Assembly: GCA_028282805.1 (NCBI GenBank)
Contig: JANQHD010000012.1
Coordinates: 1 to 25,084, forward strand
Length of the DNA: 25,084 bases
Reading direction: 5' to 3'
Source of the DNA: Phycisphaeraceae bacterium
GTDB lineage: Bacteria > Planctomycetota > Phycisphaerae > Phycisphaerales > Zrk34
Below the pieces are notes generated by a model, which worked only from the letters and a program-made list of their open reading frames with translations, was not told where the DNA came from and did not search any database. Position 1 is the first letter of the stretch, and every line of letters starts with the position of its first letter. The position numbers were made by a program, and so were the translations under genes. Of the stretch, positions 12,981 to 16,552 are shown one piece after another.

Positions 12981-13041
12981 GGGGATGTGCGATCTTCAAT
13001 CTGCAATCTCCGATCTGTTCGATTGAAGATCGCACATCCCC
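12981..13041. repeat. Perfect 21-bp-stem palindrome (GGGGATGTGCGATCTTCAATC ... GATTGAAGATCGCACATCCCC), member of the inter-tRNA spacer repeat family
   Basis: The arms 12981-13001 and 13021-13041 are exact reverse complements around a 19-nt loop. The words GATGTGCGATC and ATCTCCGAT recur in the spacers at 16141-16182, 16269-16320 and 16497-16552. Confidence 0.8.
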
Positions 13042-13043
13042 AA

Positions 13044-13116
13044 TGACCCCGGTGGGGCTCGAACCCACACCCAACGGATTAAAAGTCCGCTGCTCTGCCG
13101 CTCGAGCTACGGGGTC
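13044..13116 (-). tRNA. tRNA-Lys (anticodon UUU)
   Basis: Acceptor GACCCCG/CGGGGTC, anticodon arm GCGGA-CTTTTAA-TCCGT, T-arm GTGGG-TTCGAGC-CCCAC. Confidence 0.8.
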
Positions 13117-13122
13117 ATGAAG

Positions 13123-13195
13123 TGGATCGGGTGGGCTTCGAACCCACACCTGACCGGGTAAGAGCCGGCCGTTCTGCCAGTTGAGCTACCGATCC
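13123..13195 (-). tRNA. tRNA-Lys (anticodon CUU)
   Basis: Acceptor GGATCGG/CCGATCC, anticodon arm GCCGG-CTCTTAC-CCGGT, T-arm GTGGG-TTCGAAG-CCCAC. It is 6 nt from Lys-UUU. Confidence 0.75.
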
Positions 13196-13235
13196 GATTG
13201 AAAACGATCCGTCGCGCTGTGAATACGACGGATCG
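13196..13235 (-). terminator. Rho-independent terminator downstream of rtcB (CGATCCGTCG...CGACGGATCG followed by TTTTCAATC on the minus strand)
   Basis: A 10-bp perfect stem (13205-13214 / 13226-13235) is followed by a T-run on the transcribed strand. The T-run abuts the tRNA-Lys-CUU 5' end. Confidence 0.55.
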
Positions 13236-13260
13236 GCAAGAGCCGAAGAACTTCCGGGGG

Positions 13261-14511
13261 TCAATCCTTGTACGGATCGAACTCGTCCTCGCCGGCCATG
13301 GCCACGCCGATCGGCGTGAGCGTGTGCACGATCTTCACGGTCGAGCCGTGCGCTTCGAGCACGTCGGGCAGACGCTTGTAGCAGTGGGGTGACTCGTCGG
13401 TGCCCGCGCCGCGGAGCGTGACGCCGGCCCGCTTGACCCACTGGTTCATCATCTCTTTCGAGATTTCACCTTCGGACTTGCGGACGAAACCGCCGGCCTT
13501 CTTGTCCCAGCGCTTCTTGCCCGCGGCGCGCGTCCGGCTCATCACGCGGCCCGCGCCGTGGACCGTCGAGTGCAGCGCCGCGGCGCTGTCTTCGCTTTCC
13601 ACGCCCTCGAGGATGACCGAGATATCGCCCATCGAGCCGCCCACGAAGCCACGCTGACCGGGGAACGCGGGCGTCGCGCCCTTGCGGACGACCCACAGTT
13701 CGTGCTCAGAGCCGTCGATCACGTGCGTCTCTTTCCACGCGAAGTTGTGGTGGTTGTGAACCTCTTCCACGATGGGCGCCTTCAGCAGACGCGCGACCTT
13801 GTCGCACACCCAGTCCCGCCCGGCGTAGGCGTACCGGCCGGCCAGGTTCATGCAGCGGATGTACGACTCGCCCAAGTGCGAGCCCTCTTCGAAGACCACC
13901 GGCGCCACGTGCATGCCGTCCGCGCCGCCGCCTTGCTTGATGAAATGCGTCGCCAGCTTGTGGCCCAGGCCCCGGCTGCCGAAGTGTACGCCGCACCACA
14001 CGCGGTCCCGCTCGTCGACGAACAGGTCCACGTAATGGTTGCCCGAGCCGACCGTGCCGAGCTGCTGGCGGGCCAGCTGCTTGAGGTCACGGCACTTGGG
14101 GGCGCGGATGTGCAGGTCGTCGACCAGGTCCCACGTCTCGTCGTCGAACAGCTCGTGGTCGACCCGCTCCTGGTTTTTCCGGCCGACGCCGAATGAAATC
14201 CCGCGAAAGATCATGTCCATGATCTTGTCGATGTCCTTGCGGACGTCCTCGGCCTTGACGTCGAGGCGCACGGCCTTGTTGCCGCAGGCGATGTCGTAAC
14301 CCACGCCCGAGGGCGAGACCATGCCGTGGTACGCCACGACGCCGCCGATCGGCATCGCGTAGCCGAGGTGGTGGTCGCCCATCAGTGCGCCGGCCGCGGC
14401 TTCCTTCTCGGCCAGGCAGGTCTTGATCTGCTTGACCGCGCTCTCATCGGGCACGCCCCACACGGGCACGCCGTCCATCATCGTGTAACCCATGTCACAC
14501 CTCGCTTTCAT
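13261..14511 (-). CDS. rtcB: RtcB RNA-splicing ligase (3'-phosphate/5'-hydroxyl RNA ligase) embedded in the tRNA array
   Basis: RtcB hallmark blocks are present: DHHLGYAMPIGGVVAY, GSGNHY, SMGD and HGAGR. Start candidates are the ATG at 14511 or the ATG at 14493 (GAGGTG RBS). The longer track ORF overlaps tRNA-Gly and is rejected. The gene lies between tRNA-Gly-UCC (22 nt upstream) and a terminator plus the Lys tRNAs. Confidence 0.85.
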   Translation of the reverse strand: MKARCDMGYTMMDGVPVWGVPDESAVKQIKTCLAEKEAAAGALMGDHHLGYAMPIGGVVAYHGMVSPSGVGYDIACGNKAVRLDVKAEDVRKDIDKIMDMIFRGISFGVGRKNQERVDHELFDDETWDLVDDLHIRAPKCRDLKQLARQQLGTVGSGNHYVDLFVDERDRVWCGVHFGSRGLGHKLATHFIKQGGGADGMHVAPVVFEEGSHLGESYIRCMNLAGRYAYAGRDWVCDKVARLLKAPIVEEVHNHHNFAWKETHVIDGSEHELWVVRKGATPAFPGQRGFVGGSMGDISVILEGVESEDSAAALHSTVHGAGRVMSRTRAAGKKRWDKKAGGFVRKSEGEISKEMMNQWVKRAGVTLRGAGTDESPHCYKRLPDVLEAHGSTVKIVHTLTPIGVAMAGEDEFDPYKD

Positions 14512-14532
14512 TTTACCCTTTGTTTCGTGTAA

Positions 14533-14606
14533 TGCGCCGTGCCGGGATCGAACCGGCGGCCTGCTGGTTGGAAGCCAGCCGCTCTGCCAACGTGAGCTCA
14601 CGACGC
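14533..14606 (-). tRNA. tRNA-Gly (anticodon UCC)
   Basis: Acceptor GCGTCGT/ACGGCGC, D-arm GCTC-ACGTTGGCA-GAGC, anticodon arm GCTGG-CTTCCAA-CCAGC, T-arm GCCGG-TTCGATC-CCGGC. It is immediately 5' of rtcB on the same strand. Confidence 0.8.
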
Positions 14607-14641
14607 GGGGTGATTAATATACTGGTTCGACTGAGGATCTG

Positions 14642-15037
14642 ATGTACGTACGATTTGTCATCCCGAAACAGGATTTAGAATCGCATTCATTGCTGGGTGT
14701 GTTCCAGGCGGTGTTCGAACTCCGGGAAGCCGGGATGCTGCTGCCTCACGAAGAGCAATGGCTTGATGCTGAGATCGATTGGCTCAACGAACACCTGAAG
14801 GAGCCCGATTGTCTTGGGGAACCCGGGACGCATCGAGCGATCTCGTGGTTCCGGTCGTGCGCAACGGACCCGATCGAGAAAGTCCGCAGCATCGTGGCCC
14901 TGCTCAGGGAAAAGGGTCTGCCGGTTGAGATGATCAAGGCCGACAATCCCGGGACGATCCTCTACGAGGACGATTGGCAAGTCGTCGCGATCCCGCCAAG
15001 AAAGAAACCGCGAAACAATCAGAGCGGCAGGACTTGA
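14642..15037 (+). CDS. Hypothetical protein (131 aa), opposite strand inside the tRNA array, locally lower GC
   Basis: The ATG at 14642 has a GAGGAT RBS and a possible TATACT -10 at 14618-14623. The N-terminal coding region is visibly AT-richer than its surroundings. No recognisable domain was found. The last ~19 nt overlap tRNA-Pro on the other strand. Confidence 0.45.
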   Translation: MYVRFVIPKQDLESHSLLGVFQAVFELREAGMLLPHEEQWLDAEIDWLNEHLKEPDCLGEPGTHRAISWFRSCATDPIEKVRSIVALLREKGLPVEMIKADNPGTILYEDDWQVVAIPPRKKPRNNQSGRT

Positions 15038-15091
15038 ACCCGCGGCCTCCCGGATCCGGACCGGGCGCTCTGCCGACTGAGCTACGCTCTG
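15019..15091 (-). tRNA. tRNA-Pro (anticodon CGG), atypical C33
   Basis: Acceptor CAGAGCG/CGCTCTG with C1-G72 and A73, which are Pro identity features. Anticodon arm CCCGG-TCCGGAT-CCGGG has C33 instead of U33. T-arm GCGGG-TTCAAGT-CCTGC. Confidence 0.65.
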
Positions 15092-15099
15092 CGATTAAA

Positions 15100-16035: not shown

Positions 16036-16066
16036 GGTGCGTGAACGGCCAATGATCAAATGCAAG

Positions 16067-16138
16067 TGGAGCCGCGGGGGATCGAACCCCGATCTTCCGG
16101 GTGCAAGCCGGGCGCTCTCCCAGTTGAGCTACGGTCCC
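16067..16138 (-). tRNA. tRNA-Ala (anticodon UGC)
   Basis: Acceptor GGGACCG/CGGCTCC with G3:U70 and one A4.C69 mismatch. Anticodon loop CTTGCAC, T-arm CGGGG-TTCGATC-CCCCG. Confidence 0.7.
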
Positions 16139-16140
16139 AG

Positions 16141-16182
16141 GGGGATGTGCGATGTCCGATCTCCGATGTGCGATCGAAGCAA
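16141..16182. repeat. Inter-tRNA spacer repeat (GGGGGATGTGCGATG TCCGATCTCCGAT GTGCGATCGAAGCAA)
   Basis: Shares GGGGATGTGCGAT, ATCTCCGAT and CGAAG words with the spacers at 12981, 16269 and 16497. It contains an internal direct repeat of GATGTGCGAT. Confidence 0.6.
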
Positions 16183-16256
16183 TACCGCCGGTAGGAGTCG
16201 AACCTACACTGCGCCGGGTCTGAGCCGGCTCCCTCTGCCAGTTGGGGTACGGCGGC
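16183..16256 (-). tRNA. Class-I (short variable arm) tRNA carrying the Leu anticodon CAG - non-canonical
   Basis: Acceptor GCCGCCG/CGGCGGT, anticodon arm GCCGG-CTCAGAC-CCGGC (perfect), T-arm GTAGG-TTCGACT-CCTAC, A73, 74 nt. Bacterial tRNA-Leu is normally type II with a long variable arm, and this gene has none. The D-stem is weak (CCC/GGG). Confidence 0.55.
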
Positions 16257-16268
16257 GGATGAATCTGC

Positions 16269-16320
16269 GATGTGCGATCGGCGATCTCCGATTTGGAAAT
16301 CGATTCGCCGATCGCACATC
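16269..16320. repeat. Long near-perfect hairpin spacer repeat (GATGTGCGATCGGCGA ... TCGCCGATCGCACATC with an inner CGATTT-GG-AAATCG hairpin)
   Basis: The 16-bp outer stem 16269-16284 / 16305-16320 and an inner 6-bp stem belong to the same GATGTGCGATC / ATCTCCGAT family. Confidence 0.75.
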
Positions 16321-16337
16321 GAAGATCGAACATCCAA

Positions 16338-16409
16338 TCACCCCGGCAAGATTCGAACTTGCAGCCTTCGGCTTCGGAGGCCGATGCTCTTCCGTTGAGC
16401 TACGAGGTG
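16338..16409 (-). tRNA. tRNA-Arg (anticodon CCG)
   Basis: Acceptor CACCTCG/CGGGGTG, D-arm GCTC-AACGGAA-GAGC, anticodon arm TCGGC-CTCCGAA-GCCGA, T-arm GCAAG-TTCGAAT-CTTGC. Confidence 0.7.
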
Positions 16410-16415
16410 GGCAAG

Positions 16416-16488
16416 CCGGACCGGCGGGGATCGAACCCGCAACCTCCCGGTTCAAAGCCGGGCGCTCTGCCCGTTGAGCTACGGCCCA
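16416..16488 (-). tRNA. tRNA-Gln (anticodon UUG)
   Basis: Acceptor TGGGCCG/CGGTCCG with U1 and G73, as in bacterial Gln. Anticodon arm CCCGG-CTTTGAA-CCGGG, T-arm GCGGG-TTCGATC-CCCGC. Confidence 0.75.
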
Positions 16489-16496
16489 AGTATATG

Positions 16497-16552
16497 GCCG
16501 ATTGTCGATTTGCGATTTTGTTTTAAATCGGCAATCGCAGATCGCCAATCCA
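16497..16552. repeat. Imperfect palindromic spacer repeat (CCGATTGTCGATTTGCGATTTTGTTTTAAATCGGCAATCGCAGATCGCCAATCCAATC)
   Basis: A partial inverted repeat around a TTTTGTTTTAAA centre. It ends with the CCAATC / TCCAATC word that also ends the 16269 spacer. Family resemblance to the other spacers is weaker than among them. Confidence 0.5.

Follow-up and report, generated by a model that had tools for sequence, protein, structure and literature searches.

Intergenic heptanucleotide simple sequence repeats (SSRs) are over-abundant, inverted in some cases and highly variable between close relatives, with the cyanobacterial short tandemly repeated repetitive (STRR) sequences, GGGAATC in Xanthomonas, GGGGAYT in Nostoc and TAACTGA in Beggiatoaceae as examples; the heptamers of Xanthomonas include inverted arrangements able to form stem-loops (PMC4692102, PMC4679880). 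Planctomycetes are among the reported hosts of tRNA array units, which have at least 20 genes at a density of at least 2 per kb, and rtcB is found near long arrays (PMC4758250, PMC8421152); L-arrays and the trn operon of Anabaena are described in PMC8421152. In a term search, neither PMC8421152 nor PMC4758250 had any mention of spacers with hairpins, palindromes or heptamers, and PMC4758250 cites the tRNA arrays of Entamoeba for short tandem repeats between their tRNA genes. Here we describe five spacers (S1 to S5) between the genes of a long tRNA array on the sequence shown above, a complete contig of 25,084 bp that we call the window and that is the part of this genome analyzed for the spacer family. 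All five are built of 7-nt units. With a probability of roughly 0.55, we read them as heptanucleotide SSR palindromes that are passengers in a long, horizontally spread tRNA array.

The spacers add one more example to a known class, heptamer SSR palindromes, in a setting that is also known, the long tRNA array. Like described heptamer SSRs, they have a 7-nt unit in about 3–7 tandem copies, are non-coding, vary between close relatives and in many cases run up to where the next functional element begins. Unlike them, they lie between tRNA genes within one putative transcription unit, are mostly near-complete palindromes that fill the spacer, use NNNGATC-like or GTCTTGA units and belong to a Planctomycetota-type genome bin. 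The array resembles published long arrays in its 30 same-strand genes at about 4 per kb, its coverage of all 20 amino acids, the nearby rtcB, the mostly unencoded CCA and a patchy distribution suggestive of horizontal transfer, but this one encloses the RtcB, HNH and SPFH genes. The Entamoeba arrays, which we liken by citation alone, also have simple tandem repeats that occupy spacers and vary between strains; unlike the window they are eukaryotic and of an unrelated lineage, and in the citing paper their repeats are not reported as palindromic.

Heptamer units and folding of the spacers

With 30 tRNA genes over 7.2 kb, every one of them on the minus strand, this locus falls within the definition of a long array (at least 20 genes, at least 2 per kb, one strand). 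An initial annotation of the window had flagged four regions as long palindromic spacer repeats, and these coincided exactly with inter-tRNA spacers. A fifth spacer of the same kind, S5, was absent from its list.

10413–17628, minus strand: long tRNA array, 30 tRNA genes by ARAGORN for all 20 amino acids, on one strand
12979–13042, minus strand: S1, spacer tRNA-Lys(UUU) / tRNA-Arg(UCU), a heptamer-repeat palindrome
16139–16182, minus strand: S2, spacer tRNA-Leu(CAG) / tRNA-Ala(UGC), direct heptamers of the 3'-arm type alone
16257–16337, minus strand: S3, spacer tRNA-Arg(CCG) / tRNA-Leu(CAG), a palindrome over the entire spacer
16489–16553, minus strand: S4, spacer tRNA-Arg(ACG) / tRNA-Gln(UUG), a decayed, AT-richer heptamer palindrome
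10575–10674, minus strand: S5, spacer tRNA-Ser(GCU) / tRNA-Tyr, a heptamer palindrome

The 7-nt tandem makeup of these spacers was overlooked by the initial annotation. Every period-7 array found by Tandem Repeats Finder (TRF) in the window fell within the five spacers, at 12988–13017 (S1), 16144–16174 (S2, 4.4 copies), 16263–16292 and 16311–16334 (S3), and 10580–10610 and 10631–10669 (S5), and copy numbers were 3.4–5.6 in S1, S2, both arms of S3 and 10580–10669. Self-identity at a lag of 7 nt was 0.52–0.62 compared with 0.21–0.24 at other lags, S4 included (0.56 vs 0.21 in S1, 0.62 in S2, 0.58 in S3, 0.53 in S4 and 0.52 in S5). The spacers thus have the at least three tandem 7-nt copies of a heptanucleotide, STRR-like SSR. 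They are also non-coding and variable, with units and presence that differ among the eight arrays of the same gene order described below. Units are NNNGATC-like in S1–S4 and GTCTTGA in S5. With the 7-nt register counted from the first trailer base, the sense strand of S3 reads TTGGATG TTCGATC TTCGATG TGCGATC GGCGAAT ... GAGATCG CCGATCG CACATCG, and S4 begins UUGGAUU GGCGAUC UGCGAUU GCCGAUU. The UUG trailer of the preceding tRNA is also the start of the first heptamer unit in S3, S4 and S5.

Palindromes result where one run of units precedes a second run in reverse complement. The perfect 21-bp stem annotated in S1 at 12981–13041 was borne out by a repeat search: 12981–13001 pairs with 13021–13041 around a 19-nt loop, the palindrome reaches to 1–2 nt from the tRNA on either side, and the RNA fold is strong (−41.4 kcal/mol, z = −9.1). 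S3 consists of UU followed by a 79-nt hairpin that ends flush with G1 of tRNA-Leu, has a 22-nt arm pair with 95% complementarity plus inner and outer stems, and also folds strongly (−48.0 kcal/mol, z = −6.5). In S5, about four GUCUUGA-like units lie opposite about four UCAAGAC-like units and give a hairpin of about 30 bp (−43.4 kcal/mol, z = −4.7). S4, a 76% direct repeat with the unit formed by tRNA-Arg(CCG) and S3, folds weakly and has an unstable ensemble (−18.5 kcal/mol, z = −3.3). S2 has no fold alone (−8.8 kcal/mol, z = −0.4, equaled by 64 of 200 shuffles), because its units (GAUCGCA CAUCGGA GAUCGGA CAUCGCA CAUCCCC) are all of the 3'-arm type. The claim that all four annotated spacers fold into long hairpins therefore held for S1 and S3, weakly for S4 and not for S2. 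Over 26 nt, S2 has 92% complementarity with the S3 5' arm. When S3, tRNA-Leu(CAG) and S2 were folded jointly, the minimum-energy structure (−92.3 kcal/mol) had a helix of about 30 bp between the S3 5' arm and S2 that brackets the tRNA and competes with the local S3 hairpin.

The relatedness of the spacers had been argued from four shared words, two of which exceeded chance. With at most one mismatch allowed, GATGTGCGATC was observed nine times with 0.6 expected, eight of the nine within S1–S3. ATCTCCGAT was observed three times with 0.09 expected, with a single copy in each of S1, S2 and S3. The third word, CGAAGATCG, occurred once, at chance level. TCCAATC in S3 and S4 is the 3' end of tRNA-Arg together with the UUGGAU trailer, and there are two further copies outside the array. 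The spacers do form one related family of palindromes, so the earlier observation was real but overstated: there are four related spacers, two of which are long hairpins. The words were not confined to this locus either, and were present in its closest relative (L008, below) and in Phycisphaeraceae genome bins.

One flank of each spacer is the 3' end of a tRNA followed by UU(G), the other is the 5' end of the next tRNA, and each hairpin runs directly into the latter tRNA. A scan for intrinsic terminators found none at S1–S4 or at 10575–10674. In Rfam searches tRNA alone passed the gathering score and the spacers had no match even at E values up to 1; the additional hits up to that value overlapped tRNA genes, apart from a sub-threshold ASdes match inside the SPFH gene. 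The initial annotation had rightly set aside CRISPR: the copies are irregular in length and spacing and have tRNA genes between them, and there is no constant repeat with regular unique spacers.

Turnover, strand symmetry and competing explanations

We reached homologous arrays through RtcB proteins with 76–86% identity. Seven arrays had the same gene order as the window (L004, L005, L006, L007, L008, L009 and L010), and one further locus (L002) had RtcB and no tRNA array. Heptamer palindromes occurred in five of the seven, with units differing from those of the window; L006 and L010 had none and L009 had a short tract alone.

L004: TTAGCCG / TTAGCTG units in two spacers, each following a tRNA-Ser
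L005: GGCTTGA-like and GGGATTG-like units, Arg(CCG) to Leu(CAG) and Lys to Thr
L007: CGAATGN units, His to Pro
L008: AGGGATC, TGAGCCA and CGATGTT units, Arg(CCG) to Leu(CAG), Leu(CAG) to Ala(UGC) and Arg(UCU) to Asn

L008, the closest relative, shared heptamer junctions with the window at Arg(ACG)-Gln, Arg(CCG)-Leu(CAG) and Leu(CAG)-Ala(UGC), and the GATGTKC-type unit of the window itself recurred in L008 at another junction, tRNA-Arg(UCU) to tRNA-Asn. Across the homologous islands, then, position was partly kept and sequence was not. In the window and eight related loci together, 17 period-7 arrays were inside tRNA arrays (59 kb) and three outside (89 kb), the latter with at most 2.3 copies each. 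We also kept 80 viral RtcB loci for comparison, six of which had tRNA arrays. None of these six arrays had heptamer or strong-hairpin spacers, and heptamer spacers are therefore not general to RtcB-linked arrays.

Similar elements occurred away from tRNA genes. A scan of representative genomes with the loose pattern GATGTGCGATSNNCRATC returned at least 117 stretches; by our estimate most of the matches listed are chance, and none of those listed was in a tRNA array. Among these matches were inverted (GATGTKC)n/(GMACATC)n pairs in ordinary intergenic DNA of three Phycisphaeraceae contigs (L109, L086 and L063), none of them adjoining a tRNA. In L109 the paired arms form an approximately 35-bp stem whose end is a few bases upstream of a start codon. 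L037 had a direct tract of GATGTGC-type units at a contig end, and heptamer palindromes of other units were found, again among the matches listed, in Pirellulales (L020) and Gemmatimonadaceae (L036, L096). The inverted heptamer pairs in ordinary intergenic DNA mean that such elements are not restricted to tRNA arrays. At L063 2660–2950, GATGTGC-type arms flank a separate, near-perfect, GC-rich palindrome of about 30 bp, a nested arrangement in non-tRNA intergenic DNA.

The folds of the heptamer spacers were indifferent to strand. The difference between sense and antisense averaged −0.6 kcal/mol (Wilcoxon p = 0.97, n = 12), whereas other structured spacers, chosen with a strand-neutral criterion, favored the tRNA-sense strand by −4.4 kcal/mol (p = 0.002, n = 28, 20 vs 8), with a negative value at 12 of 12 junction types. 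This fits DNA-level symmetry in the heptamer palindromes and RNA-level structure in the other spacers, including the two GC-hairpin spacers described below.

We built the passenger explanation on the periodicity, the palindromes, the turnover between arrays, the occurrence elsewhere and the strand symmetry. Replication slippage would create and remodel tandem 7-mers, and template switching or inverted duplication would convert some of the units in a tract to their reverse complement, yielding a palindrome. Unit sequence, copy number and presence would change fast, and the heptamer spacers would carry no sequence-specific function. They would be co-transcribed with the tRNAs from the minus strand, and cuts at the UU(G) trailer (RNase Z) and at the 5' end of the following tRNA (RNase P) would free each spacer as a hairpin. 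Such spacers may persist because self-pairing leaves the folding and processing of neighboring pre-tRNAs undisturbed.

Several observations weigh against this explanation. Array spacers were richer in heptamer tracts than the intergenic DNA that flanks the arrays, a small control of about 6–13 kb of non-coding sequence, and the in-genome evidence on tract dispersal is this 25-kb contig alone. A strong hairpin lay upstream of tRNA-Tyr in all four arrays with that junction, in four unrelated sequences, and long hairpin or heptamer spacers recurred upstream of tRNA-Ala(UGC), tRNA-Arg(UCU) and tRNA-Leu(CAG). This junction recurrence is equally compatible with hairpin selection and with insertion hot spots. 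The arms of S1 are also perfectly complementary over 21 bp though adjacent units differ, an identity that requires either very recent origin or maintenance.

The main alternative, a tentative one, is that the hairpins are selected RNA structures of a polycistronic pre-tRNA, serving as RNase III entry sites or as insulators that keep sub-precursors apart, stop 3' exonucleases or prevent Rho from loading, with the heptamer repeats as mere raw material. RNase III stems in rRNA operons and phage T7 early transcripts are long, near-perfect double-stranded RNA. S1, S3 and S5 resemble them in that stems of at least 20 bp separate the products of what would be one polycistronic non-coding transcript, and the hairpins fill their spacers flush to the tRNA ends. 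By length (about 20 bp of near-perfect duplex), S1 with 21 perfect bp and S5 with about 30 bp including mismatches would be substrates, and S3 can be counted with about 17 perfect bp plus extensions, while S2 and S4 fall short. The helix of about 30 bp between the S3 5' arm and S2 would bracket tRNA-Leu(CAG) much as rRNA processing stems bracket 16S and 23S. Selection is also favored by the recurrence of hairpins of unrelated sequence at shared junctions, with counts of 4/4 upstream of tRNA-Tyr, 4/7 upstream of tRNA-Ala(UGC), where the window has the unpaired tract S2, and 3/6 upstream of tRNA-Arg(UCU).

Other features of the same junctions argue the opposite. At the Ala(UGC), Arg(UCU) and Leu(CAG) junctions the spacers of other arrays are merely 5–22 nt, so a hairpin is not required there. 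S2 and S4 are non-folders or poor ones, the heptamer spacers lack the sense-strand stability bias of the other spacers, the same heptamer palindromes occur away from tRNAs, and the six viral RtcB-linked arrays have no such hairpins. Unlike the rRNA and T7 stems, those of the window are not conserved in homologous arrays and many equivalent junctions are stemless, and cleavage here would be by analogy with them. The initial annotation had proposed processing structures for RNase III or RNase E; for S1, S3 and 10575–10674, with their stems of at least 20 bp, such processing may be plausible, but it is weakened by the lack of sequence conservation in homologous islands, by the 5–22-nt spacers that relatives often have at these junctions and by the absence of any preference of the palindromes for the transcribed strand.

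A narrower version, which we regard as doubtful, is that defined junctions (upstream of Tyr, Ala(UGC), Arg(UCU) and the short Leu(CAG)) need a long precursor hairpin that is repeatedly reborn by heptamer slippage and inversion. If so, the hairpin would be an RNase III entry site or an insulator of folding or against Rho, structure would be conserved through turnover and not through compensatory substitution, and the pairing of the S3 5' arm with S2 would be a switch gating the maturation of tRNA-Leu(CAG).

It is unlikely that the spacers are a mobile extragenic palindrome that an enzyme spreads between tRNA genes, akin to repetitive extragenic palindromic (REP) sequences and bacterial interspersed mosaic elements (BIMEs) or to miniature inverted-repeat transposable elements (MITEs). 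Like REP/BIME, they are imperfect extragenic palindromes that could form transcript hairpins and have related copies at several sites: a CGATGTK/NNNGATC family occupies four window spacers and two or three L008 spacers, GGCTMAY-type units occur in L004 and L008 with related AGCTATC/GCTGATC outside arrays in L020, and inverted pairs lie at non-tRNA loci. The REP/BIME-like label that these spacers had been given can stand loosely, for dispersed extragenic palindromes such as the GATGTGC-type inverted pairs in Phycisphaeraceae non-tRNA DNA. Strictly it cannot, as the spacers have no conserved 20–40-nt unit and no GTAG head. Instead of a constant unit there are variable 7-mers, a periodicity foreign to REP, and the sequences differ from site to site. 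No GATGTGCGATC-type copy lies outside the array in the window, and a Pfam screen of 10 large open reading frames (ORFs) returned no Y1-transposase/REP-associated tyrosine transposase (RAYT) or other transposase domain. Constant length, conserved ends and target-site duplications are likewise lacking, and a spacer is wholly palindrome or tandem array, which does not agree with a MITE and its terminal inverted repeats on either side of a non-palindromic core.

We consider it very unlikely that the tracts are protein-binding or methylation arrays, with GATC (Dam-type) every 7 bp or cold-shock-type heptamer binders regulating transcription. GATC density is 39 per kb in S1–S4 vs 7.1 per kb in the window, PMC4679880 cites heptamer repeats as bound by CspB, and a MerR-type gene lies at the array end in L004 and L005, with a MerR-like frame in the window. 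The heptamer palindromes of 10575–10674, L004, L005 and L007 contain no GATC, however, no methylase or binding protein is linked to the repeats, and units differ between arrays and therefore offer no common binding site. Least probable of all are independent small-RNA genes, which the initial annotation had allowed for and which stable hairpins of 60–100 nt freed by RNase P and RNase Z might mimic by accumulating, given that scans found no promoter-like site in the array and no terminator-like site at the spacers and that their sequences are not conserved, or an assembly artefact, given comparable structures in five independent assemblies (NCBI, ENA and Logan).

Three further origins were dropped: derivation of the units from T-loops, suggested by the UUCGAUC-like units of S3, as other units are unlike T-loops; integron attC sites, for want of conserved core sites; and tRNA remnants, the spacer sequences being of low complexity.

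If the five spacers are passenger SSR palindromes, the labels CRISPR, REP and small-RNA gene can be avoided in their annotation. Long tRNA arrays, possibly related to stress or anti-defense, can carry hypervariable repeat spacers, and these could be strain markers like the repeats of the Entamoeba arrays as cited in PMC4758250. The unrelated hairpins at shared junctions remain a modest hint that precursor architecture matters for very long tRNA transcripts.

The GC-hairpin spacers and other features of the array

Two GC hairpins, at 16824–16855 and 16959–17010, had been annotated as unrelated to the palindromic spacers. They are not part of the heptamer family, and they lie in spacers that are conserved in position across the homologous arrays.

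16796–16884, minus strand: Ile/Asp spacer, contains the GC hairpin 16824–16855, not a heptamer repeat
16956–17071, minus strand: Phe/Ile spacer, contains the GC hairpin 16959–17010

The Ile-Asp spacer folded at −38.5 kcal/mol (z = −2.4), and in an alignment its block ACGGRYCGYGGCAURGWC and outer stem recurred at the same position in six other arrays. RNAalifold on a MAFFT alignment, which is not structure-aware, gave no double-sided covariation, and any conserved structure in this spacer is putative. The Phe-Ile spacer folded at −61.0 kcal/mol (z = −4.0), with the sense strand better by 11 kcal/mol. Within 17015–17042 on the minus strand it has a near-invariant promoter-like block, TTGACAAGTGAAGAACGGATGGATG, that includes a perfect TTGACA. 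Aligned across arrays, the block (TCTTTGACAAGTGAAGAACGGATGGATG) was present in eight of eight with 20 invariant columns. There the block TTGACAAGTGAAGAGCGGATGGATG is followed by the GC hairpin, whose stem varies on both sides between arrays and which keeps a GCAAU-type loop; hairpins are also found in L004–L006. Block and hairpin may be an internal promoter plus leader. A sigma-70 promoter scan called no site in the array, this block included, and a metagenome contig scan with the conserved Phe-to-Ile block found nothing.

A second family of hairpins, GC-rich and based on CCCCCGGAAG...CTTCCGGGGG, occurred in several spacers of related arrays and had no clear counterpart among S1–S4.

L005: CCCCCGGAAG...CTTCCGGGGG hairpins at 3488–3569, 5603–5696 and 6039–6123
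L008: CCCCCGGAAG...CTTCCGGGGG hairpins at 3702–3752 and 9909–10002

Three protein-coding genes identified by Pfam lie within the array.

11008–12603, minus strand: SPFH/Band7 gene, inside the array
13261–14493, minus strand: RtcB gene, inside the array
15322–15933, minus strand: HNH endonuclease gene, inside the array

HNH, RtcB and SPFH/Band7 were conserved within arrays (window 11008–15933; L004, L005, L006 and L010). A MerR-type gene closed the array in L004 and L005, the window sequence has a MerR-like reading frame that begins just past the last tRNA, and L010 additionally had a Ro60/TROVE-like and an endonuclease V-like protein. Together the HNH, RtcB, SPFH and MerR genes, with the Ro60-like and endonuclease V-like proteins of L010, resemble a module for RNA repair or quality control. 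The nearest named RtcB homologue came from a Planctomycetota genome bin, the sole basis of our host assignment. An exact look-up of RtcB returned one 1.8-kb copy of the same locus and nothing else, and sequencing run SRR20820733 contains an identical RtcB. The array flank encodes a GH2 protein whose search matches were a mixture of the Planctomycetota-Verrucomicrobiota-Chlamydiota (PVC) group and Bacteroidota and placed the host no more finely. A 131-aa ORF at 14642–15037 lies on the opposite (plus) strand inside the array, between tRNA-Gly(UCC) and tRNA-Pro(CGG); it had no Pfam match and was also gene-called in L001, an independent assembly of the same locus.

The Rfam tRNA model confirmed 28 of the 30 ARAGORN genes. 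The other two, tRNA-His(GUG) at 15100–15173 and tRNA-Ser(GCU) at 10675–10762, both on the minus strand, fell below the Rfam tRNA gathering score and may be non-canonical or decaying array tRNAs. CCA was encoded solely by the tRNA-like gene at 12556–12635. The remaining 3' ends have the discriminator base followed mostly by UU(G), some with an extra C between, and this conserved trailer suggests RNase Z-type 3' maturation followed by CCA addition. The 80-nt gene at 12556–12635 follows a conserved spacer of about 100 nt with the motif TTCCGYGACACGGGTTC after tRNA-Trp (window 12556–12739, minus strand). ARAGORN labels it Asp(GUC), its counterparts in relatives were called Ile, His(AUG), Leu(AAG) or given no assignment, and the tRNA-fragment-like GGGGTTCAAATCCCC follows it, in the stretch of about 40 nt downstream of 12556.

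The gene called as tRNA-Leu(CAG) was 73–75 nt in eight of eight arrays, without the long variable arm usual in bacterial tRNA-Leu, and its anticodon and T arms are like those of the tRNA-Lys(CUU) of the array. In the window it stands between S3 and S2.

Window: short tRNA-Leu(CAG) at 16183–16256, minus strand
L004: short tRNA-Leu(CAG) at 8767–8841
L005: short tRNA-Leu(CAG) at 2339–2413
L006: short tRNA-Leu(CAG) at 8113–8187
L007: short tRNA-Leu(CAG) at 7119–7192
L008: short tRNA-Leu(CAG) at 3456–3528
L009: short tRNA-Leu(CAG) at 7038–7111
L010: short tRNA-Leu(CAG) at 2232–2306

The Met-to-Val spacer contains a 14-nt box, GCGCGATCGGTGCG, at 17235–17248 on the minus strand, about 10 nt upstream of tRNA-Val. 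Exactly one copy was present in each of the window, L004, L006, L007, L008, L009 and L010, always between Met and Val, and the box could be a protein-binding or processing signal.

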